A stretch of DNA of 64,000 nucleotides from Gemmatimonadales bacterium (GTDB lineage Bacteria > Gemmatimonadota > Gemmatimonadetes > Gemmatimonadales > Gemmatimonadaceae), in NCBI GenBank assembly GCA_038325515.1, contig JBBQJC010000011.1, positions 6,025 through 70,024 of the forward strand, written 5' to 3'. Under the pieces are notes generated by a model that had not been told where the DNA came from, did not search any database, and was given only the letters and a program-made list of their open reading frames with translations. Of the stretch, positions 6,226 through 61,900 are shown in pieces; the first letter of the stretch is position 1; each line of letters starts with the position of its first letter. The position numbers and the translations under genes were made by a program.

Positions 6226-7056
6226 CTACCCTGCAGGGAGCAAGTCCGGCTCCAGCGTCTTCTCCACGACGGCGCCGTTCACGACGCTGACGTAGTAGAC
6301 CTTCGCCTCGCGCCGCGTGCTGACGACGCGCTTCACTGCGTCGTTCTCAAAATAGATGCCGGCGTCGTTGTCGCACGCGTAGCCGGGCTTCATCTGGCCC
6401 GACCCGATCAGCGTGTGGTACAGCGGCCGGCGTCCCGCCTCCGCGTCGTAGTGCGGGCTGTGGCTCCCCTGGAGGAAGCCGAGGCACTTCACGATGGAGA
6501 GCTCCTTCGGACGCGAGTCGGTGGTGCCCTCCTCGAACCAGCAGAGCGAGCCGGCGCTCGCCCCGCCGAGGACGATCCCCTTGTCCCATGCCTGGCGGAG
6601 CACGGTGTCGATCCCCTGCGCCTTCCAGATCGCCTGCTGGTTGAGGGTGTTTCCCCCCGAGGCGACGATCCCGTCCACCGCGAGGAGCACCTCGTCCCAG
6701 CCGCGCTTCTGCGACAGGCTCTCGATGAAGCTCGTCTGCACCTGCGGCTCGACGTCGAGGCGCGAGCACTCGTGGTAGAAGCGGATGATCCCTCCCTGGT
6801 CGTCGGCCGACGCCGTCGGCAGGTAGAGGATCTTCGGGCGCTGCTTGCCCGTGAGCTCGGCCATGTAGCGGATGAACGCTGCGTTGAAGCCTCCGCCGGC
6901 GATGAGGATCTTGCGCGTGGCGGAGGGTCTTGTGTCGGTCGGAAGCATGTGGGCGAACAGGTCGGGGTTCGTGACGTCGGCGGGAATGGGCAGCCGGGCG
7001 GCACCGAGCGCGACGGCGCTCATGGCCGAGGAGGCGAGGAAGTCTCTGCGCTTCAT
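6226..7056 (-). CDS. S51-family peptidase (peptidase E / cyanophycinase-like) with Tat signal
   Basis: 'MKRRDFLASSAMSAVALGAA' has a twin-arginine motif. 'VASGGNTLNQ' and 'LGGASAGSLCW' are S51 signature regions. An alternative start lies at 7074. Confidence 0.75.
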   Translation of the reverse strand: MKRRDFLASSAMSAVALGAARLPIPADVTNPDLFAHMLPTDTRPSATRKILIAGGGFNAAFIRYMAELTGKQRPKILYLPTASADDQGGIIRFYHECSRLDVEPQVQTSFIESLSQKRGWDEVLLAVDGIVASGGNTLNQQAIWKAQGIDTVLRQAWDKGIVLGGASAGSLCWFEEGTTDSRPKELSIVKCLGFLQGSHSPHYDAEAGRRPLYHTLIGSGQMKPGYACDNDAGIYFENDAVKRVVSTRREAKVYYVSVVNGAVVEKTLEPDLLPAG

Positions 7057-11601: not shown

Positions 11602-12690
11602 GTGACTCCAATTCCCGGGCTCCTCCGCCGCACCCGCGCCCTGCTCGCCTCGGCCCTCCTGCTCGGCGCGTGCAGCGCGCGAGCCGCCTCCGCGCAGTGG
11701 GCCCCCGCCCGCTTCGACGTGACGCGCGATCCCTTCGCCGACCTGTGGTACCACGGCATGGCGGCGATCAACGGCACGAGCTATGGCCCGCTTCCGCTGT
11801 ACGACGCGGGGTATCCAGGCGACGTCCGTGAGACGAAGCGGCGGCGCGCCCTCGTCACACCGCTCGATTCGTCGGTGGCGGCGCTGCGCGCCGCCTTCTC
11901 GTCAGACAGCGCCTTCGACGTCCTGCACTTCGTCCCGGCGTACTTCGTAGGCGAGGATCCGGTCGCGGTGCTCGCATCGCTGCGGTCAGCGTTCACGGGG
12001 CACGGGGCCACATCCGGCCGCGCGCCGCCTTCGGGACTCGATGCGCGCGCCGCCGTGGTGGCGCGGTCGTTCGCCTCGTCTCGACAACGCCAGACCGTCG
12101 TTGTCCTCCTCGATGCTCTCGCCGCCGAGTGGCGGGCCTTCGTCCGCGACGATCGCGTCGAGCGCGGCCCTTCGCCCCGCGCCCTCGAGGCGCTCCGCCG
12201 CGACTGGGACGTGCGGTTCGCCGCCCCGCTTGGCGAGTATCTCGCCGACGCCGGCCACGCGCGCGGCGTGATCGTGGTGTCGCCGGCGGTGGGAGCGGAG
12301 GGACGCATCGTCGCACCGCGCGGGGGCCGCGTCGTCGTGATCGTCGGGGCGCACCGCGACGCCGGGGTCACCGGTGCGCCGCTGCTCGCCGCGGTGCGAG
12401 AGCTCGCCTTCCCCCTGCTCGACCGTGTGCCGCCGCTCGCCGAGAGCGCGGGGGGGGATCGTCTCGCCGCCGAGCGGCGCCGCGAGATCGCGGCCGTGCG
12501 GGGAGGAGCGATGCTGCTGGAGTCCGTCGCACCGGCGCTGGTGCCCTCGTACGAGCGCCTCTACCTGGCCGTCGCCGGCGGACGGCCGACGCGCGATTTC
12601 GCGCGAGCATTTCCACTGGACATCGAGACGGAGACCGCGCTGCGCGCGGCGACCGCTCGCTACTCGCAGCACGGAGGAATCGGACGATGA
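11602..12690 (+). CDS. Hypothetical secreted protein
   Basis: GTG start. Signal-like 'LLRRTRALLASALLLGACSARAASAQ'. The stop overlaps the start of the next gene (ATGA). Confidence 0.5.
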   Translation: MTPIPGLLRRTRALLASALLLGACSARAASAQWAPARFDVTRDPFADLWYHGMAAINGTSYGPLPLYDAGYPGDVRETKRRRALVTPLDSSVAALRAAFSSDSAFDVLHFVPAYFVGEDPVAVLASLRSAFTGHGATSGRAPPSGLDARAAVVARSFASSRQRQTVVVLLDALAAEWRAFVRDDRVERGPSPRALEALRRDWDVRFAAPLGEYLADAGHARGVIVVSPAVGAEGRIVAPRGGRVVVIVGAHRDAGVTGAPLLAAVRELAFPLLDRVPPLAESAGGDRLAAERRREIAAVRGGAMLLESVAPALVPSYERLYLAVAGGRPTRDFARAFPLDIETETALRAATARYSQHGGIGR

Positions 12691-14024
12691 CGCATAGACA
12701 GCTGCCTTCTGTCGTGGCGCTTCTCGCACTGCTGGCGGTTCCGCGGTCGGCGGCGCTCGCCACCGACGGCCACTTCCTCCATGGCGTCGGCGCGATCAAC
12801 TCGTCGATGGGGGGCGTCGGGGTGGCGTCGCCGAGCAGCATCCTCGGCGCGTTCTACCTCAACCCCGCCGGACTGCTCGCCTTTCACGGTACGGCCATCG
12901 AGCTCGGCTTCGAGCTGTTCAAGCCCGACCGCACCCTCTCGAGCACCGCGGGACCGAACAGCGGCTCGACGCGCAGCACCAGCCAGTTCGTCCCCGTTCC
13001 CGCGTTCGGGTGGAGTCGCGAGGTGATCGACGAGAAGCTCGTCGTCGGGGTGGGCGGGCTGGGCATCGGCGGGTTCGGCGTCGACTATCCAGTGGATCCG
13101 ACCAATCCCGTCCTCGCGCCGCGGCCGTTCGGCTTCGGGGAGATCTTCAGCAACTTCTCGCTTATGAAGATCATTCCCGGCGCCGCCTGGCAGGCGACCG
13201 ACAAGCTGCGGCTCGGTGGCGCGATCAATCTGGACTGGGCGTCGCTGGCCGTCGATCCGATGCCGGTTGCCGCGCCGGCGGTGGACCCGGGGCCTGACCG
13301 CGTGCCCGGCACCGCGGACGACCGTGCCTACTACTCTCGCGCCACCGACGCCTACGGGGCCTTCGGCATCGGCGCGCAGCTCGGCCTGCAGTACGCGTTC
13401 GACCCCGACATCGCGATCGGTCTCGCGTACACCACGCCGCAGCGGTTCCACCAGTTCGAGTACAACGCCGTCTATGAGAACCCCAACCTCCCGAACTTCA
13501 ACACGCCGCGCGTGATCAGGTTCGCGATGGACGTTCCCGCGGTGTACGCGGCCGGCGTCGCCTTCAGCATGGGCGACGAGCTCACGCTGGGGCTCGACGC
13601 GAAGTATCTGACCTACGCGAGCACGCGCGGCTTCAAGGAGTCGGGCTTCGCGGCCGACGGCTCGGTCAAGGGGTTCGGGTGGAAGGACATCTGGAGCGTC
13701 GCGACCGGGGCGCAGCTCCGCCCCACGAGCCGGACGGCGCTCCGCGTCGGCTACAACTACTCGGGCAACCCCATTCCGCCCGAGCTCTCGATGTTCAACA
13801 CGGCGGCACCGGCGATCATCAAGCATCACGTCACGTTCGGCGCGGGCTACCTGTTCGACGGCTTCGGCGTCGACGTCGGCTACTACCACGCCTTCCGCAA
13901 CAGCATCACCGGCCCCTTCCAGACGCTGGGCGGCCCGGCGCCAGGCACCTCGGTCACGAGCGCGATGTCGGAGAACTCGTTCCAGATCGGGGTCACGTAC
14001 AACCCGAAGCGCGGCGCGCGCTGA
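12687..14024 (+). CDS. Outer-membrane transport protein, OMPP1/FadL/TodX family
   Basis: Only the part from the internal Met 'MTHRQLPSVVALLALLAVPRSAALA' of ORF 12129..14024 is used. 'GHFLHGVGAINSSMGGVGVASPSSILGAFYLNPAGL' is a typical FadL-family N-terminus. Alternating beta-strand pattern runs to the C-terminus. Confidence 0.75.
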   Translation: MTHRQLPSVVALLALLAVPRSAALATDGHFLHGVGAINSSMGGVGVASPSSILGAFYLNPAGLLAFHGTAIELGFELFKPDRTLSSTAGPNSGSTRSTSQFVPVPAFGWSREVIDEKLVVGVGGLGIGGFGVDYPVDPTNPVLAPRPFGFGEIFSNFSLMKIIPGAAWQATDKLRLGGAINLDWASLAVDPMPVAAPAVDPGPDRVPGTADDRAYYSRATDAYGAFGIGAQLGLQYAFDPDIAIGLAYTTPQRFHQFEYNAVYENPNLPNFNTPRVIRFAMDVPAVYAAGVAFSMGDELTLGLDAKYLTYASTRGFKESGFAADGSVKGFGWKDIWSVATGAQLRPTSRTALRVGYNYSGNPIPPELSMFNTAAPAIIKHHVTFGAGYLFDGFGVDVGYYHAFRNSITGPFQTLGGPAPGTSVTSAMSENSFQIGVTYNPKRGAR

Positions 14025-35240: not shown

Positions 35241-35897
35241 TCACGTGCCGGGCATCCAGGCGCAGCCGGCGTTCTGCGCGCGGATGAGTGCATAGATGCC
35301 CGATGGGACGAGGATCGCGCCCGGTATGAGATTGTTGCGCCACTCCGTCTTCACGGCCTCCGGATCCCGCTGCCGCTTCTCGGCCATGCCGGTTGCCCAG
35401 TTGCCGAGAGCCACGTCGCAGACCAGGCAGATCAACCCTCGCCGTTGCAGGGGCTCGAGCGCATGCTGGGTCTCCCAGCCCTTGGCTCCGTCGCGCGCCT
35501 TCCAGTACACGTTGCGAGTCGCCGCCACGCCGGTGTTCGGGTCCTTGATCTTTTGATCCTCGCCGATGGCGTAGCGTTCCCACAGCGCGTCGTTGAGAGC
35601 CATCGGCGTTCCCATGCGCCGAAAGACGATGACCGGGCGCATCTGCTGGTCGCTCGTCCCGTGAACGGCATGGAAGTCGTCGAGAAACGAGCTTACGTAG
35701 CTGAGAACGCTGCCGTCGCTCACCTCACTCGTGTTGAACACGACACGGTGCTGCGCTGGCGCCAGGCGATCGAGCCATGACGTATCCCACGGACCGCCGT
35801 CGCGCCGGGACGCGGCGTGCAGCTCATCAACGTCGACCGTGAGGCTCGCAGCAAGCGCGCCGAGCTGCCCGATGAACTCTCGCCGAGCGATTGTCAT
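35241..35897 (-). CDS. Tat-exported hypothetical protein
   Basis: 'MTIARREFIGQLGALAASL' twin-arginine signal. Confidence 0.6.
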   Translation of the reverse strand: MTIARREFIGQLGALAASLTVDVDELHAASRRDGGPWDTSWLDRLAPAQHRVVFNTSEVSDGSVLSYVSSFLDDFHAVHGTSDQQMRPVIVFRRMGTPMALNDALWERYAIGEDQKIKDPNTGVAATRNVYWKARDGAKGWETQHALEPLQRRGLICLVCDVALGNWATGMAEKRQRDPEAVKTEWRNNLIPGAILVPSGIYALIRAQNAGCAWMPGT

Positions 35898-40046: not shown

Positions 40047-41666
40047 TCAGGCCAACACCGCGCGACGCGCGCGATCCTCCTCCCACTCCACGAACGGGCC
40101 GTCGAAGTCGGCGAGCCGTGTCCCGTCGAACCACCAGACGCGCGTCGCGACCTCCCGCAGGAAGGCGCGGTCGTGGCTCACCAGCAGCACCGTGCCGTCG
40201 TACTCGTCGAGCGCGTCCTCGAGCACCTCGATGTTCTCGACATCGAGATGGTTCGTCGGCTCGTCGAGCACCAGGAGGTTGGCATGCGCGAGCGTCATGC
40301 GCGCGAGCGCCATCCGCGCGCGCTCGCCACCGCTCAGCGTGCCGATCTCGCGGAGGACCTCGTCGCCGCTGAAGCCGAAGGCGCCGAGGTGGTTCTGCAC
40401 CTGGCCGCGGTTCCAGAGCGGACGCTCGTCCTGGATCGCGTCGAACATCGACTTGCGCAGCGGCAGGTCGGCCAGGTCCTGCCGGAACCAGGCAGCGGTG
40501 ATCGAGCCGCCGACCCGCGCCTGGCCGGCCGCGGGCGCGCGATCGCCGAGGATCGTCGAGATGAACGACGACTTGCCGGCGCCGTTCGGGCCGACGAGCG
40601 CGACGAAGTCGTTCCGTCGCAGCACTGCCGTGAAGCCGTCCACGAGCACGCGGTCGGGCACCTCCACGCGGAGCCCGTCGATCGCGACCACCTGGTCGCC
40701 GCCGCGCTCGGACGTCTCGAACTGGAGGCTCATCGCCGCCGGATCGCCGGGCGGCGGCGCCAGCCTCGGCAGTCGCTCCAGCCGCTTGCGCTTGCCCTTA
40801 GCCTGGAAGGAGTTCACGCCGGCGATGTTGCGGCGGATGTACTCCTCCTCCTTCTTCACGTACGCGCGCTGCTTCTCCATCTCGCGCTCGCGCGTGAGCC
40901 GCCGCTCCGCCCGCTGCGGCACGAACTGGCTGTAGTTCCCCTTGTACGTCTCGCTCGAGCGGGCCTCGACGTGCAGGATGTTCGTGCAGATCGCGTCCAT
41001 GAAGGCGCGATCGTGCGACACCACGATCACCGTCTCGTCGGCCTCGTTCAGCCAGTCCTGCAGCCAGGTCGTGGTGTCGAGGTCGAGATGGTTGGTCGGC
41101 TCGTCGAGGAGGAGCAGGTCGGCGGGGGCGATGAGCTGCGCGGCAAGCCCCACGCGCCCGCGCTCCCCCCCCGACAGCGACGACACGAGCCGTGTCTTCG
41201 ACTCCTCGGCATCGAAGCCGAGTCCCTGCAGCACCGCGTCGACGCGTGCGTGATAGACGTAGCCGCCGAGATCGGCGAACCGCTCCTGGTCGCGTCCGAA
41301 CCGTTCGAGGAACTCGCCGGTGACGCGCTCGCCCAGCTCACCGAGCTCGATCGCCTGCCCGGCGATGCGCTGTTCCAGGGCCATGACGTCGCGCCAGGCG
41401 GCGGCGCCCGCCTCCCAGACCGTGGTGGCGCCCTCGAAGGCGCGGTGCTGGTCCAGCAGGGCGTGCCGGAGTCCCGGCTTGCGCGAGACGCTCCCCACCG
41501 TGGGCTTGAGATCCCCGGTGATGATCCTGAAGATCGAGGTCTTGCCGGCGCCGTTGCGCCCGATGATCCCCCACCGCTCGCCGTCGGCGACGGTGAAGGT
41601 GATGTTCTTGAACAGTTCGGTCGCGCCGAAGGAGACGCCGACGTTGGAGACGGAGAGGAGGGTCAC
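40047..41666 (-). CDS. ABC-F family ATPase (two ABC domains, no TM domain)
   Basis: Two Walker A sites ('GRNGAGKTS', 'GPNGAGKSS'). Two signatures ('LSGGERGRV', 'LSGGERARM'). Two Walker B sites ('LLLLDEPTNHLD', 'LLVLDEPTNHLD'). Confidence 0.9.
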   Translation of the reverse strand: MTLLSVSNVGVSFGATELFKNITFTVADGERWGIIGRNGAGKTSIFRIITGDLKPTVGSVSRKPGLRHALLDQHRAFEGATTVWEAGAAAWRDVMALEQRIAGQAIELGELGERVTGEFLERFGRDQERFADLGGYVYHARVDAVLQGLGFDAEESKTRLVSSLSGGERGRVGLAAQLIAPADLLLLDEPTNHLDLDTTTWLQDWLNEADETVIVVSHDRAFMDAICTNILHVEARSSETYKGNYSQFVPQRAERRLTREREMEKQRAYVKKEEEYIRRNIAGVNSFQAKGKRKRLERLPRLAPPPGDPAAMSLQFETSERGGDQVVAIDGLRVEVPDRVLVDGFTAVLRRNDFVALVGPNGAGKSSFISTILGDRAPAAGQARVGGSITAAWFRQDLADLPLRKSMFDAIQDERPLWNRGQVQNHLGAFGFSGDEVLREIGTLSGGERARMALARMTLAHANLLVLDEPTNHLDVENIEVLEDALDEYDGTVLLVSHDRAFLREVATRVWWFDGTRLADFDGPFVEWEEDRARRAVLA

Positions 41667-52069: not shown

Positions 52070-54031
52070 CTACGGCGACATCATCGGCGCCAATCGAATC
52101 CCTCGCAACGCACCCAAGCCCCTCACATCCACCGGCACCACCCCGCCCGGATCCGCCATCGTCCACGGCGCCGGCACCGGATCCACCCCCATCACGACAG
52201 CGCGCTGCCCGAACAACGCCGCCGTCAACGAATGCAGCGCCCGATGCCTCCACGCCGCCGCCTTCACCTCCATGGCCAGCAGCAGATACGCCGCATCCTC
52301 GAACGACGGCACAGTATCCGCCGGCGAGACACCACAGTAGCTCTGCGTCGACGCCCACGCGCACCCATGCCCCACCCCGAGCGTGTGCATCGCCTCGTGA
52401 ATCAACACGCTCTGCTGCAGCGCTCCGACGGCTGAAGGGTTGTACCCGATCACCTGCGCCTGCGACATCGTGTTGCTCACCGTGATGTGATCCACGGCCG
52501 ACCCGCGCCACCCGGTCACCACGAAGTCCTGCAGCATCAGCACAGCCGGCGACGTGATCCCGGTGCCGATCGCCCCGGTACCCCCACCTCCAGTTACCGC
52601 ACCGCGCAACAGCGAGTCGAACTGGAAGATCAACATCCGGTTGGGCGTCGTCCCCGACACGCGATCGGTCCTGTACCCATCCTGGTCGTTGACGGGCTTC
52701 CAGATCTGGAACCCCAGCGTGTTCTGTACAGTGGCCAGCGCCCGCATCACCTGCACCGAATCGTCCGCGGCCACCTTGCGCGCCGAGCAGCAGGCGCGAT
52801 GGATCGCCACGTTGATGGGAAAGCTGTCGGGCAGCCAGAACATCTCCGCCGCCGAATACGTGTTCTGCAGCTTCGGCGCCGCACCCCCTGACGTAATGGG
52901 GGCCTTCTGCACCCCGCTCGTGAACAGATACGACGGCCCGGTATGCGTCGACGCCGACATCGCGGCATCGAGGTTCACCGCAAGCGTTCGCCCCGCGTAG
53001 ATCCCGCGCGTCACGCGATACTGTGTCGGCACGAGGATGAAGCTGACGTCGGCGTTGATGTCGGAGCCGACACAGTTGGGCAGCGCGCGCACCGAGCAGT
53101 CGGTCGCCACGGGCATCAGCGCCGGAAACCACGCGCGCCCGCTCTTGCTCACTGCATCGATCAGCACCTCGCTCGCCCATCCTGTCGCGTGCGTGGTCAG
53201 CTTGAGCCGGTACGTTCCCGCGGCGCTCACGTCGGCGCTGTCGGTCACGCTCCCGTTGCGCGAGTACGCACGCAACGGCGGCAGGGCGGATCCGTCATAC
53301 GTCCACACCGCGCCGTGCAGCACGCGAAAGAACTCGACGCGCACTGAATCCTTGGGAATGTTGAGCGGACCGGTTGTCGCCACAGCCCACGTGGTGCCGT
53401 CTCCCCTGCCCACGAGCGCCCCGCTGGCGATCCGCACGGCGACCGCCGTGTCGCGCACGAGGAGGCTCGGCGATCCGGCCAGCACTGTCCCCTTGGTGTC
53501 CTTCACCGTTGCCGCCACGCTCACCGTGTCGCCCACGTACTGCTTGGTGGCGCTCGGCGCGAATGCGATCGACCCGATGGGCACAGTTCCGCTGAACGTC
53601 GCGGGCTTGGCGACACGCGCGCTGGTCACGGTGAGCTGCTGCGACTCGGTAGTTGGGCCGAGCGTCCACAGCGCGAACGCTCGGCCAAGGCTGTCGGTAC
53701 TGGCGGCGACGACCCTCACGCTCCCGCCCCCGGACGCGACGGTCCAGGTCACTGGCTCACCCTTTGCCGGCACGCCGAGCGAGTCGGCGAGCTTCACGAC
53801 CATCGCGTCGGTGGGCGTGTCCCCCGCCGGCAGCGACTGCGACACGGCGCTGAGGATAGTCATCGCCAGCGGCCCCGGCGCGGGTGGCGTCGGTGTGGTC
53901 GGGGTCGTCGGCGTGGTGGGGGTGGTCGGCGTGGCCGGGGTCGATGGCGTCGTCGGCCCCCCGCCCTCCCCGCCGCAGGCCGCGAGGGTGAGGGCTGCCG
54001 CGACTGCCCGCGCCGTGCTCGTGAGACGCAT
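52070..54031 (-). CDS. Lipoprotein with Pro/Thr linker, Big-like Ig domains and a C-terminal metzincin-type zinc protease motif
   Basis: 'AAALTLAACGG' lipobox. 'PTTPSTPATPTTPTTPTTPTTPTPP' linker. 'VTWTVASGGGSV' and 'QQLTVTSA' are Ig-like. 'VLIHEAMHTLGVGHG' gives HExxHxxGxxH. Confidence 0.75.
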   Translation of the reverse strand: MRLTSTARAVAAALTLAACGGEGGGPTTPSTPATPTTPTTPTTPTTPTPPAPGPLAMTILSAVSQSLPAGDTPTDAMVVKLADSLGVPAKGEPVTWTVASGGGSVRVVAASTDSLGRAFALWTLGPTTESQQLTVTSARVAKPATFSGTVPIGSIAFAPSATKQYVGDTVSVAATVKDTKGTVLAGSPSLLVRDTAVAVRIASGALVGRGDGTTWAVATTGPLNIPKDSVRVEFFRVLHGAVWTYDGSALPPLRAYSRNGSVTDSADVSAAGTYRLKLTTHATGWASEVLIDAVSKSGRAWFPALMPVATDCSVRALPNCVGSDINADVSFILVPTQYRVTRGIYAGRTLAVNLDAAMSASTHTGPSYLFTSGVQKAPITSGGAAPKLQNTYSAAEMFWLPDSFPINVAIHRACCSARKVAADDSVQVMRALATVQNTLGFQIWKPVNDQDGYRTDRVSGTTPNRMLIFQFDSLLRGAVTGGGGTGAIGTGITSPAVLMLQDFVVTGWRGSAVDHITVSNTMSQAQVIGYNPSAVGALQQSVLIHEAMHTLGVGHGCAWASTQSYCGVSPADTVPSFEDAAYLLLAMEVKAAAWRHRALHSLTAALFGQRAVVMGVDPVPAPWTMADPGGVVPVDVRGLGALRGIRLAPMMSP

Positions 54032-57649: not shown

Positions 57650-58003
57650 CTAAAGGCCCGCCGTCTTCTTGAGCTGCATGATCGCCATGCCGACGGCGCT
57701 GGAGGCGGTCGCGAAGCCGCTGCCCAGTGCGAGCATCGCCTCGGCGTCGTCGTACCGCTTGGCATTGATCGCCGATGCCACCTTGCCCGCTTCGGCGTGG
57801 AACGCGGCGTGCTTCGCCAGGCACTCGGCATGGCTCGCCGTCTGGCCGTACTTCGTCTTCGCCTCGCCGTGCAGCCACTGGCCGAGCTCGCAGGCGTTGT
57901 CCTTCGCGATGGTTGCGGCGTCCATCGTCTCCTTCTTCGTGATCGCCGCACGCAGCTTCACCTTCCACTCGGCGTGCTTGCCGATCGCATTGTCGAGATC
58001 CAT
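57650..58003 (-). CDS. Stand-alone CZB (chemoreceptor zinc-binding) domain protein
   Basis: 'HAEWKVKLRAAI', 'CELGQWLHG' and 'HAECLAKHAAFHAEAG' give the His/Cys zinc-ligand pattern of CZB. Confidence 0.75.
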   Translation of the reverse strand: MDLDNAIGKHAEWKVKLRAAITKKETMDAATIAKDNACELGQWLHGEAKTKYGQTASHAECLAKHAAFHAEAGKVASAINAKRYDDAEAMLALGSGFATASSAVGMAIMQLKKTAGL

Positions 58004-58348
58004 GGGTCGCTCCTGGCGTGAGTTGTCGATGCGCTTTACAGGAAGATCGGCCGCCAGGTGCGCGCGCTAAGTAGGGAGGATTACTGAAGTCGTGTGGGGA
58101 AGATCGCCCGGCGTGGATGAACAGCGCTCCCAGCAGCAGGTAACGCGCGCATGAGGCTCACGCATGGGCACGTCGTGCGAGAGCTGCGACGCCGCCCGGA
58201 GCAGCGACAGAACGACGGTCTCCTTCCGCAGACACCAGATCGCGAGCGACCAGGGCGAGGCGGGCGATCCACGAATTTGCTTGCACCCTGGCGAGCGCCG
58301 CTCCACCTTCGTCGGGCTATTTCCGATGTGGAGCACTTACGCCCGCGC

Positions 58349-58354
58349 AAGGAG
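58349..58354 (+). promoter_or_regulatory. Shine-Dalgarno sequence (AAGGAG) for the long form of lanA
   Basis: AAGGAG, then an 8-nt spacer (cagaacaa), then the ATG at 58363. Confidence 0.5.
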
Positions 58355-58362
58355 CAGAACAA

Positions 58363-58848
58363 ATGCCTGCAATGGACGAGGAGGAGGGACGGCCTGCTGC
58401 TGCTGAACCGATCGCCGACGAAAGTGATACGAGGCGCGAGGCGCTGAAGCGAGTCGGACTCGCGGCCGCGGGTCTGGCGGCCGCATCGCTGTTGCCGTTC
58501 GGATCGAGCGCTCACGGCGCGAGCCTGCCGACGGGCATGGCTGACGACGAGGACTTCGAGGAGAGGGTCGTCATGCGCGCATTCAAGGACGACGCATTCC
58601 GCAAGCGGCTCCTCGCCGATCCGCGGCGGGCCGTCGCCGAAGTGCTGGGCAAGGATTTCCCCGCTGGCATCGACATCAAGGTCGTTCAGGAGTCGCCGAC
58701 CACGGTCTACCTCGTGCTGCCCGCTGCCGAGCCGGCCACGCGGGTGAGGCCAGGCGGCACAGGCGCCCCCGGGCTCCCCTTCCACAGCCGGTGGCGCTGT
58801 TGCAATCACGACCTCACCTGCACGAGGAAGGGCAGGCCGGCGGGATGA
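58363..58848 (+). CDS. lanA: Lanthipeptide precursor with NHLP (nitrile hydratase-like) leader domain; the long form has an N-terminal Tat-like signal
   Basis: 'FEERVVMRAFKDDAFRKRLLADPRRAVAEVLGKDFPAGIDIKVVQESPTTVYLVLPAAEP' matches the NHLP leader pattern. 'RPGG' is followed by the Cys/Ser/Thr-containing tail 'TGAPGLPFHSRWRCCNHDLTCTRKGRPAG'. lanM lies 81 nt downstream. An alternative start is Met59 at 58537. Confidence 0.8.
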   Translation: MPAMDEEEGRPAAAEPIADESDTRREALKRVGLAAAGLAAASLLPFGSSAHGASLPTGMADDEDFEERVVMRAFKDDAFRKRLLADPRRAVAEVLGKDFPAGIDIKVVQESPTTVYLVLPAAEPATRVRPGGTGAPGLPFHSRWRCCNHDLTCTRKGRPAG

Positions 58849-58929
58849 GTTGACACCGGTATCTCTCGGCGGCGCCGCCGCGTTCGTCGGCCGCCGAGGA
58901 TACTGCCGGTCAGCGCGAGACGCCTGTCC

Positions 58930-61900
58930 ATGACGTCTCCTCGGACCGACGCGGATCTCCGCGCGCTCGTCGAACGCGCCAGCTCGCGCGGAGAGCGGCT
59001 CGATCCCCTCTTCGGCACGAGCGACGCACCGCTCCCCGCTTGGACGAGCACCCTCCTCGGAGCCCTCGATGTGGCGGCAGCGCTCGCGAATCCCTCCGGC
59101 GCCACGGCAGATCGTGCCCTCGCTTCCGGCGAAGTGCTGCCGTTCGAGGAGATCGTGCTCCCGTTCGTGATACAGGCGCGCGCGATGCTGCCCTCCAGAG
59201 TGGTCGAGACCCACCTTTCGCCCGCCGCGTGGGCCACGCTCGAGCGCGCGTTGCTACGACAGCTCGTAGGTCTGTTCATGCGCCCGCTCTACGCGGAATT
59301 CGCGGCGCTGCGCGCTACGCGGCGGTCGGCATTCTCCCGGCTGCTGGCGCGTGAGGGCTCGGACAGCGAGTATCGCGCGTTCGTGGCGCGGATGCACTCC
59401 GGCGGTCTGGCCCTGCTCCTCGCTGAGCTCCCCGTCCTGGCGCGCGCCGCCGCGCAGGCGACCGACCAGTGGCTCGAGACCACCGTCGAATTTCTCGGTC
59501 GGCTCGCCGCCGATCGCACCGCGATCGCGGCGGCGTGCTCGCCCCACGCCCACCCCGGTGAGGTCGTCGCCGTCATGACTGGGTTGTCGGACGCCCATCA
59601 TGGCGGCAGGACCGTGGCCGAAGTGCGGTTCGCCTCGGGGCTGCGCGTCATCTACAAGTCGAGAGATGTCGGAATCGAGCAGGCCTTCTTCGCCCTGCTC
59701 GCCTGGCTGAACGGGCACAGCGGCCTGCTCCCCCTGCGCGAGCTGCTCGTGCTCGAGCGCCCGGGCTATGGCTGGCTGGAGTTCGTCGATCATCTGCCCT
59801 GCACCAGCGAGGCAGAGGCCGATCGCTACTTCCGGCGCGCCGGGATGCTCCTCGCCCTCGTCTACGCGCTGGGCGGCGATGACTGCCATGGCGAGAACGT
59901 CATCGCGTCGGGTGAGCATCCCGTCCTGGTCGATCTCGAGACGATCATGCGCCCCATTCCCCCCGATGCGTCGAGCCCCCCGCCCGGCGCGGATGCGCAG
60001 TTTCTTGCTCGGCTGCGCTTTCAGGACAGCGTCCTCGGCACGGGCTTCCTGCCGCGCTGGGAGACCGACAACGAGAGCGGCAGCATCGACGTCAGCGGAC
60101 TTGGCGGTGAGGTGGAGCAGACGAGCATCGACCACTTTCCCCGCTGGGCCAACGTCAATACCGATCGCATGAGCCTGGAGTACGCGCTCGGAGACGTGTC
60201 CCCGGCCGAGAACGTTCTTCGACTCGGGGACCGCCCGCTGCCGGTGGCATCGTACGCGGACTCCCTCATCGAGGGCTTTCGCTCGATGTACTCGCTCATC
60301 CTGTCGCAACGCGACGCGATGCTCGCGCCGGATGGCCCGCTGGGCGCGTTCGCCAACCACACCGTCCGCTTCGTGCTTCGCTCGACGCACGTCTACGCCA
60401 GGACCCTCGAGGCCAGCCTCGATCCCGCGGTGTTGCACGACGGTGCGCGGCGGAGCATGGAGCTCGACGTCCTGCGCCGCTCGCTCGGCCCGGACCTCGA
60501 CCCGCGGGCGCTGGCCACGCTTCACAGGGCCGAGCAGGCGGCGCTCGAGTCGTTCGACGTCCCGCACTTCTCCACCTCGGCTGCTTCCCGGTCGCTCACC
60601 CTCGGCGATGGCCTCACGCTCGTCGATTACCTGGAGCAGTCACCATTCGACCGCTCCATCGCGCGAATCCGTGGACTCGATCGCGATGACCTCGACGTGC
60701 AGGTCGCCTTCATCCGTGCCGCGCTGCTTGCCTCCGTTGCCGTGGATGCCGGGATGGAGGGAAGTGACGATATGCTCGACGACGATACGCCGATGTCGCG
60801 CGAGGACTTGATCTCGGCAGTCCGCGCGATCGCCACCCAGCTCCACGCGACGGCGATCCGCTCTCCCAACGGGAGCGCGAGCTGGATCGGCCTGGGATTC
60901 CTTCCCCTGGCGCAACGGTTCCAGCTTCAGCCCATTCGCGGCGATCTCTATAGCGGCGTCGCGGGTATCGCGGTCTTTCTCGCCGCGCTGGAACAGGTGA
61001 CGGGAGAGGCCGGGCACGCGCTCGCGCTGAGCGCGCTGCTGCCCCTGCGACGGGATGTCTCGCACCACGGTGACGACCTCGCCCGGAGCGTGGGGATCGG
61101 AGGCGCGACGGGACTCGGGTCGATCGTGTACGGATTCGTTCACACCGCGAGACTCCTTCGCGACCCCTCTCTGCTCGAAGACGCGCGAAGCGCCGCCGCG
61201 CTGATCTCGCTCGACCTGATCGCCAGCGACGTGGCGCTCGACGTCATCGCCGGCGCCGCGGGAGCTCTGCTCGGCCTGTTGGCGCTGCACGACGCGACGC
61301 CGGAGCCGTGGGTGCTGGAGCGCGCCATCGCCTGTGGAGAGCATCTCGTTCGGCAGCGGATCGAGATGCCCGACGGCCGGCGCGTGTGGCAAACGATACC
61401 TGAGGAATCGCCGCTGACCGGCTTCGCGCACGGCGCCGCGGGAATTGCCTACGCGCTGCTTCGCCTGTCGGCGCAGGCCGGCCCCTCCGAGTCATCTGCA
61501 TTCGAGGCTGCCGCGATCGATGGGATCGCCTACGAGCAGAGCCTGTTCGTGCAGGGCTCGCGCAATTGGCCCGATGTGAGAGAGCCCCTCGGCGCCGATG
61601 GACAGCCCGTCTGCCGCACCGCCTGGTGTCACGGTGCGCCGGGCATCGCTCTCGCACGTCTCGGTGGACTGGCGTCGCTCGACACACCCGGCGTGCGAGC
61701 CGACGTGGACGCCGGACTGGAGACGACGCTGCGGTTCGGTGTGGGAGCCTTCGATCATCTCTGCTGCGGCGGGGCGGGCCGCATCGACGCACTCATCGAA
61801 GGCGCGCGCCGGCTGCACCGCCCCGAGCTGCTCGACGCCGCCAATCGACTGGCCGCACGCATGGTGCGTCGGGCGCGGCGAGCCAGCGGCTATGCCACAC

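Follow-up and report, generated by a model that had tools for sequence, protein, structure and literature searches.

A conserved twin-arginine-type signal precedes the NHLP leader of a class II lanthipeptide precursor in a Gemmatimonadales bacterium

Introduction

How does a lanthipeptide precursor leave the cytoplasm when its own gene appears to provide an export signal? The question is raised by lanA, a gene in a 64-kb stretch of DNA from a Gemmatimonadales bacterium (contig JBBQJC010000011.1; this whole stretch of 64,000 nucleotides is called the window below). Its product, LanA, combines a signal of the twin-arginine translocation (Tat) type, a nitrile-hydratase-like leader (NHLP) domain and a Cys-rich core, and it is encoded upstream of lanM, the gene of a class II lanthipeptide synthetase (Table 1). 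Precursors of peptides made on the ribosome and modified after translation (RiPPs) are generally thought to be signal-less and to rely on dedicated transporters. The described NHLP precursors reportedly begin with the leader and are cut at a Gly-Gly site by an ATP-binding cassette (ABC) exporter carrying a C39 peptidase. An initial annotation of the window had suggested that LanA departs from this pattern. Our analysis shows that the N-terminal module is conserved and indicates that it is very probably real and translated. From its sequence features and those of its relatives, its probable function is that of a cleavable signal by which Tat exports the precursor once LanM has modified it.

The Tat-type signal of LanA

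The initial annotation had placed a match to the Tat consensus at residues 23-29 of LanA (protein record P0001 is identical to it). This was borne out by TIGR01409 (TAT_signal_seq, NCBIfam), a curated Tat hidden Markov model (HMM), which matches residues 23-50 at 18.3 bits (cutoff 16.7). Thus a signal model does recognize a part of the first 58 residues, which that annotation had regarded as vulnerable to a non-signal call. Signal peptidase I cuts after A-x-A, and in the window protein its site is probably behind SSA (SSA/H, the slash marking the cut) or behind HGA (HGA/S). The uncharged run of the window protein extends up to 30 residues.

Since open frames rich in Ala, Arg and Gly can mimic signals in a genome of 69.5% GC, a strict Tat-like rule was applied to the window's 323 six-frame open reading frames (ORFs) of 80 aa or more, and lanA alone passed it. 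Chance is excluded as an explanation, because no other ORF passes the rule and because orthologous loci with far less GC also preserve the extension. The initial annotation had also listed two further Tat signals in the window. Their twin-arginine (RR) N-termini are present by eye; however, neither reached TIGR01409 at E<=0.01. One is the N-terminus MKRRDFLASSAMSAVALGAA (MKRRDFLASS) of a Peptidase_S51 protein (6226..7056, minus strand), and the other is MTIARREFIGQLGALAASL (MTIARREFIGQ) of a protein with a weak thiosulfate-dehydrogenase-like match (35241..35897, minus strand).

Table 1. Features of the lanA-lanM locus, in positions of the window
Feature	Coordinates	Strand	Remarks
lanA	58363..58848 (end includes stop codon)	+	161-aa ORF: Tat-type signal, NHLP leader and Cys-rich core
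Shine-Dalgarno AAGGAG	58349..58354	+	Direct sequence read; 8-nt spacer cagaacaa before the long-form ATG
Acidic n-region, residues 1-22	58363..58428	+	Net charge -7; low GC3 (GC content at third codon positions), loosely constrained
Twin-arginine motif T-R-R-E-A-L-K, residues 23-29	58429..58449	+	R24 and R25 invariant (20-sequence alignment A4, and L036)
h-region VGLAAAGLAAASLLPF (residues 31-46) and c-region GSSAHGA (residues 47-53)	58453..58521	+	Uncharged run, mean Kyte-Doolittle 1.06
NHLP leader domain, residues 63-123	58549..58731	+	TIGR03793 62.8 bits, cutoff 50.9; PF02979
Conserved core SRWRCCNHDLTCTRKGRPAG, residues 142-161	58786..58845	+	Thioether rings could draw on 3 Cys, 1 Ser and 2 Thr
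GC-rich inverted repeat in the lanA-lanM gap	58857..58909	+	RNA fold -43.9 kcal/mol; no T-tract; membership uncertain
lanM, class II lanthipeptide synthetase, 1028 aa	58930..62016	+	TIGR03897 840 bits; DUF4135 (PF13575) and LANC_like (PF05147)
SARP-like regulator, 922 aa	54176..56944	+	Trans_reg_C, BTAD and long C-terminal repeat region (Pfam); upstream of cassette

Conservation of the extension

Relatives were gathered by following the contigs of LanM homologues, and then by an exhaustive HMMER search and a profile search. The closest precursor in the first search, P0002, lacks the extension, and the precursors that carry it (long forms) emerged by following LanM instead. As the initial annotation had anticipated, the neighbourhoods of homologous lanM genes do contain NHLP precursors with an N-terminal RR extension. 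At least 21 distinct precursors adjoining related LanM genes (the 20 sequences of alignment A4, and L036) carry a Tat-type module like that in the 58-residue extension of LanA. The precursor directly 5' of LanM has 159 aa in L003, 172 aa in L005/L006, 169 aa in L032, 187 aa in L033 and 168 aa in L036. A profile scan of genomes with alignment A2 added one long-form locus, L007, from an alphaproteobacterial (Micropepsaceae) metagenome-assembled genome. The metagenome scan with A2 yielded only one long form, L018 (same contig as L003). In both A2 scans the other matches were signal-less NHLP genes, and a scan of genome contigs with a single LanM protein returned no relatives.

Within the first 60 residues of A4 only Met1 and the two arginines are invariant. 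The RR pair is present in all 21 members, at residues 23-28, so that the extension is conserved across orthologous lanA-lanM loci and not confined to the window. Around it the motif reads (S/T/A/P/D/N/L)-R-R-x-(F/M/I/V/A/L)-(L/I/M)-(K/A/T/R), including the textbook form S-R-R-S-F-L-R-K in L036 and TRRSFIAK in P0147. The motif is followed by an uncharged h-region of 16-30 residues, rich in Gly, Ala, Thr and Ser, with a mean Kyte-Doolittle value of 0.6-1.5, and in most members by an A-x-A site (ASA/Q, AFA/D or GMA/Q) about 23-28 residues past RR.

When the 20 members were scanned singly (E<=0.1), all matched the NHLP model, 12 matched TIGR01409 and 11 matched TIGR02811. The commonest other families matched are Tat substrates (MelC1, tat_substr_1, MoCo_extend_TAT, PvdN, MsrP and Rieske QcrA), and the remaining family matches were confined to single members with E>=0.014. 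The genes with DNA available range from 55 to 69% GC, and the frame of the extension stays open across indels of varying length in A4. Therefore, base composition can not explain the signal.

Translation start of lanA

The coordinates given in the initial annotation for the ATG (58363-58365), the spacing of AAGGAG, the TRREALK motif and a Met59 without ribosome-binding site were all verified by reading the sequence. No Shine-Dalgarno motif occurs in gcgagcctgccgacgggc, the 18 nt that lead up to Met59 (58537). The start context is aaggagcagaacaa-ATG in the window, aaggagcagcgcc-ATG in L035 (the locus of P0291, the closest relative of the window protein) and aaggaggaaaag-ATG in L034, while L003, L005, L007 and L032 have ...caa(g/c)aa(a)agga(a/c)caaacaa-ATG in common and L036 has ggagagagg...ATG. 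Thus an AAGGA- or GGAG-type sequence followed after 7-9 nt by ATG stands 5' of the extension at seven of the eight long-form loci (L003, L005, L007, L032, L034, L035 and L036), the exception being L033 (GGGTG only). The precursors without extension (short forms) at L001, L030 and L031 have the same kind of initiation context directly 5' of the NHLP Met.

Most long forms contain no ATG, GTG or TTG with a usable Shine-Dalgarno sequence between the signal and the NHLP domain, and for them the long protein is therefore the sole possible product. In silico, then, the possibility raised earlier that only Met59 is used runs against a conserved start context before the extension and against orthologues that mostly lack an internal start. 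In the window a minor short product from Met59 may also be made. A scan of 57950-59000 for promoters and terminators found none, and no T-tract terminator.

NHLP leader and core peptide

The NHLP leader was said in the initial annotation to begin only after the extension, and the TIGR03793 match indeed starts at residue 63. In an AlphaFold2 model (39-sequence alignment) only residues ~60-120 are confident (predicted local distance difference test, pLDDT, 80-93), forming three helices and a beta-hairpin. The signal and the core are modelled with low confidence, with a low-confidence helix over residues 20-35 and unstructured h-region, c-region and core.

The core of the window protein recurs nearly unchanged in P0291 (SRMRCCNHDLTCTHKGRPAG), despite an overall identity of only 47% between the proteins, and P0132 shares it in part (SRWRCCDH). 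Most members have a second type of core, with the C-terminus (A/L)FTRSWFRxCPCRCSSLSVC. The conservation of the core argues for a functional product. At the usual Gly-Gly site, VAGG is intact in the short forms P0002 and P0166. Most long forms have AVG, AIG, AAG or ADG there, the -2 position having drifted to V, I, A or D. The window protein contains RPGG at residues 130-133, out of register with the short-form VAGG. The drift would fit relaxed selection for cleavage by a C39 peptidase, although it is not proof of it.

Export route and alternatives

The initial annotation had noted that the flanks encode no LanT, the dedicated exporter with a C39 peptidase. In the 64-kb window, where 45 of the 50 called gene-like ORFs were compared with Pfam and/or NCBIfam and all 50 were inspected by motif, no C39 peptidase was found, and the only ABC protein is a soluble ABC-F (40047..41666). 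ORFs that reach 300 aa and combine an ABC signature with a Walker A motif are also missing from L003, L005, L032, L033, L034, L036, L030 and L031, which were scanned up to 10 kb on each side and less at contig ends. The observation thus holds for the window and eight related loci; however, it discriminates poorly. NHLP precursors are often encoded apart from their transporter, and the absence of LanT was rejected as a discriminator since signal-less NHLP loci mostly have no ABC exporter nearby either.

LanM enzymes are cytoplasmic, require ATP and bind the leader of their substrate, and Tat moves folded substrates bearing an RR signal. From the sequence features, their conservation, the start context and the lanA-lanM pairing, which are established, we infer an order of events, a dependence on Tat, a cleavage site, and where and in what form the product ends up. 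In this scheme the NHLP leader would recruit the signal-less, ATP-dependent LanM in the cytoplasm, and LanM would dehydrate Ser and Thr of the core and close the thioether rings. TatBC would then recognize the RR motif of a protein consisting of the folded NHLP domain and a cross-linked tail, and the Tat translocase would carry it across the inner membrane. Behind the A-x-A-type site signal peptidase I would cleave, freeing an NHLP-core species of ~100 residues into the periplasm, where a protease may strip the NHLP leader or trim the product further. In this clade the general Tat pathway would replace a dedicated LanT (C39-peptidase ABC) exporter. The predicted fold of the NHLP domain is counted in favour of the Tat route.

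The earlier proposal that LanM modification is followed by Tat export is supported by the sequence, and nothing found in silico refutes it. Its destination has to be corrected from the outside of the cell to the periplasm. A FadL/Toluene_X-family outer-membrane beta-barrel protein is encoded at 12129..14024 (plus strand), which makes the host diderm, and Tat would thus deliver to the periplasm and not to the medium. L007, being alphaproteobacterial, comes from a diderm host too. We tentatively raise a more far-reaching possibility, which as a whole we consider well below even. In it, a natural class II lanthipeptide family uses Tat instead of a peptidase-ABC exporter, its product may be a periplasmic 'lanthi-protein' of ~100 residues, made of the folded NHLP domain and a thioether tail and not a small secreted antibiotic, and the acidic n-region would hold back export until LanM is done.

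Several points weigh against Tat export. In the window protein the TIGR01409 score exceeds its cutoff by just 1.6 bits and its own A-x-A cleavage site is ambiguous, and 8 of the 20 members have no TIGR01409 match at E<=0.1. All 21 clade members have an acidic n-region (net charge -1 to -7), which is atypical for signal peptides. In addition, tatA, tatB and tatC were not found in the 64-kb window, and the signal-less sister loci L030 and L031, like most other NHLP loci, are also without a nearby ABC exporter. Change is also faster in the extension, where the ratio of nonsynonymous to synonymous substitution rates (dN/dS) is 0.3-1.0 by the Nei-Gojobori method, than in the remainder of the protein (0.2-0.55), although these values come from small counts and are not relied on. 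The extension appears to be under constraint, loosely in the n-region and linker, which is the pattern expected of a signal peptide with a free n-region and linker. Codon bias is a weak point of the extension as well: GC3 is ~0.6 over the first ~30 codons of lanA, then climbs to 0.8-0.87 beginning with the h-region, and is 0.85 in the NHLP part. Finally, engineered Tat export of lanthipeptide precursors was only speculated on by Urban et al. (2017; PMC5686179), and preliminary attempts were reportedly unsuccessful.

Inside subgroups of the clade the n-region is conserved (ENGNGAE..AHEEEAN). It might delay export or bind a partner, which is speculation.

Among the alternatives, the extension could be a general secretory (Sec) or dual Sec/Tat signal, and the modified, flexible precursor would be threaded through SecYEG. 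This appears unlikely. The n-h-c architecture with A-x-A is compatible with Sec, and the core is short and predicted to be disordered. However, Sec requires neither the RR pair that is invariant in 21 of 21 members nor flanks that follow the Tat consensus. The h-regions are rich in Gly, Ala, Thr and Ser, and mean Kyte-Doolittle values of 0.6-1.5 are low for Sec signals. Moreover, the matches obtained are to Tat-specific HMMs, and the NHLP domain is predicted to fold. It should be added on the side of Sec that RiPP precursors with Sec signals exist, namely bufferins, for which such threading has been proposed, and oxazolins (PMC12452194).

The extension might instead remain uncleaved as a signal-anchor, tethering the precursor or product to the inner membrane, either near LanM or with the modified C-terminus displayed in the periplasm. 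The uncharged run of the window protein and its ambiguous cleavage site would allow this, and membrane retention of the HalI type has been described for a halocin precursor with a Tat signal (PMC3387779). The clear ASA/Q, AFA/D or GMA/Q of most members, at a fixed distance from RR, and h-regions whose length and hydrophobicity are low for a stable transmembrane helix make it distinctly improbable.

We consider it very improbable that the extension is non-secretory, that is, a recognition or regulatory element bound by LanM or another partner and merely resembling a Tat signal. The n-region is indeed unusually acidic, conserved by subgroup and not needed for Tat targeting. However, the conserved positions are those that define a Tat signal (RR, hydrophobic residues at +2/+3, h-region and A-x-A), and the signal of L034, an independent lineage, is a different one, the classical GRRDFLK behind a basic n-region. 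The extension is dispensable for LanM, given that signal-less precursors occur together with LanM proteins of the same clade.

A start-codon artefact, in which the true product begins at Met59 (58537) and the upstream frame is an untranslated, GC-biased open frame, can be dismissed with near certainty, for although GC3 is ~0.6 in the first 30 codons against 0.85 downstream and the window Met59 corresponds in the alignment to the first residue of the NHLP part in P0002 and P0292, both short-form homologues that begin with this Met, a strong Shine-Dalgarno sequence stands at 58349-58354 and none before Met59, the extension is conserved as protein in 21 sequences with GC down to 55% and mostly without an internal start near the NHLP domain, and just 1 of 323 shadow ORFs is Tat-like.

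Evolution of the Tat-NHLP precursors

In a neighbour-joining tree of LanM, all long-form loci and the window fall into one clade, with L002 as the sister of the window, and the short-form loci L030 and L031 are nested within it. P0002, P0292 and P0293 are signal-less precursors of this clade. The signal-less precursors at L030:4590-4916, L031:9580-9909 and L001:3175-3501 have 108-109 aa and the same core as most long forms (...CRCSSLSVC). No signal remnant was found upstream of L001, L030 or L031 in any frame, and in-frame stops occur 8-35 codons upstream; these three are true short forms. Because all long forms share one LanM clade, the most parsimonious view is that the clade inherited the Tat module from its ancestor, kept it across 52-55% LanM identity and occasionally lost it by precise deletion.

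A further long form, from a marine metagenome, belongs to a different LanM branch. In this locus (L034) the LanM gene (L034:2655-5903) is paired with a precursor (L034:1742-2536, P0159) of 264 aa. This protein starts with a classical GRRDFLK signal, whose n-region is basic, and continues with two NHLP domains and a tail rich in Cys. The separate LanM lineage points to a Tat-NHLP fusion acquired independently. Other proteins related to NHLP or the nitrile hydratase (NHase) alpha subunit also have an N-terminal RR, namely P0007 (256 aa), P0233 (150 aa) and P0255 (244 aa), the first of these being a homologue of almost the whole NHase alpha subunit and carrying GRRKFLSEAAAGAAGLAA. Fusion of a Tat signal to the NHase/NHLP fold has thus apparently happened more than once, and such signals extend beyond the LanM clade.

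When the full 161-aa precursor served as query, 10 of the top 150 cluster representatives passed the strict Tat-like rule. One of these, P0222 (194 aa), has its RR stretch internally, at residue 68 (SRRQMLKTVGYAAGAAAVAAAGL), between two NHLP domains; it may represent two genes, first a short NHLP gene and then one for a Tat-NHLP precursor, that are fused or joined by read-through.

lanM and the neighbourhood

The gap between lanA and lanM is 81 nt. LanM is full-length and bifunctional, uniting a DUF4135 dehydratase with a LanC-like cyclase. The lanM product has no match to a signal-peptide or transmembrane family and is presumably cytoplasmic. Its closest homologues are 52-65% identical and adjoin Tat-NHLP precursors. 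The window LanM (1028 aa) and P0023 (1025 aa) are ~55 residues shorter than the closest homologues (1082-1084 aa). The inverted repeat in the gap is at most a possible attenuator, its fold being no better than that of shuffled sequences (z = -1.17).

Every related locus with available DNA is a bare lanA-lanM pair in a neighbourhood that is different each time. Integrase genes of phage type were seen beside the pair at L030:8343-9278, L032:13458-14709 (plus a reverse transcriptase in L032) and L033:15068-15451. Together, the integrases and the varying flanks suggest that the two-gene cassette is mobile.

The SARP-like protein encoded upstream of the cassette is tentatively a candidate pathway regulator, and BTAD-domain genes occur near the cassette also in L036 (693-2663) and L031 (2230-5529). 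A predicted lipoprotein of 653 aa (52070..54031, minus strand; lipobox ...LTLAAC), which bears a HEAMHTLGVGH motif of metzincin type and matches Big_1 weakly, is encoded 4.3 kb upstream of lanA and could be an extracytoplasmic protease. It was rejected as the leader peptidase, since this HExxHxxGxxH gene is not conserved at other lanA-lanM loci. Divergent from lanA, across an intergenic region of 359 bp, is a gene for a stand-alone chemoreceptor zinc-binding (CZB) domain protein of 117 aa (57650..58003, minus strand).

Relation to known systems

The initial annotation knew of no described Tat-routed lanthipeptide or NHLP precursor. This agrees with our search of open-access papers and bioRxiv, in which no paper was found on a natural Tat-routed lanthipeptide, NHLP precursor or other RiPP, nor was a natural example found of a lanthipeptide or NHLP precursor with a Sec signal. 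LanA resembles the NHLP class II precursors (prochlorosin-type ProcA/ProcM; TIGR03793) in having a leader above cutoff, a LanM encoded downstream and a core rich in Cys, Ser and Thr. It differs from them in the Tat-type signal of 58-90 residues before the leader, in the drifted -2 Gly and in the lack of a nearby exporter.

Compared with classical bacterial Tat signals (TIGR01409; formate dehydrogenase TIGR02811, MelC1), the module shares the S/T-R-R-x-F-L-K motif, the weakly hydrophobic h-region and A-x-A. However, the passenger is a RiPP precursor and not a cofactor enzyme, and the n-region is strongly acidic in all 21 members. The nearest analogues are the bufferins, with their Sec signals, and the microhalocins, with their Tat signals. 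Like the precursors of bufferins and oxazolins, LanA would be modified in the cytoplasm, bears an N-terminal signal to general secretion and would end in the periplasm. Their signal, in contrast, is of Sec type, replaces the leader and goes with MNIO (DUF692)/DUF2063 proteins, whereas here a Tat-type signal precedes a complete NHLP leader and goes with LanM. Bufferin precursors, which are called highly unusual, were only recently demonstrated to be exported by Sec in their natural host (PMC12452194). Haloarchaeal microhalocins are released from Tat-signal prepro-proteins and are not LanM products (PMC3387779). Unlike the family described here, the microhalocins (HalS8, HalC8) and HalH4 are archaeal, without LanM, thioether modification or NHLP, and their haloarchaeal hosts send most of their secretome through Tat.

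Taken at the level of sequence, the lanA family suggests an undescribed route by which a ring-closed peptide is exported through a folded-protein secretion pathway. If this is true, a conserved Tat signal before an NHLP leader would be a second general-secretion route for such products, suited to peptides that are first modified in the cytoplasm, and it would raise the question of how premature export is prevented. The natural combinations of signal and leader could be of use to engineers who want lanthipeptides exported or displayed by way of Tat. Genome-mining tools would get these genes wrong if they look for short precursors without a signal or cut back to the Met that most closely precedes the leader. 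For diderm bacteria, the Tat route would suggest that some lanthipeptides have periplasmic rather than extracellular roles.

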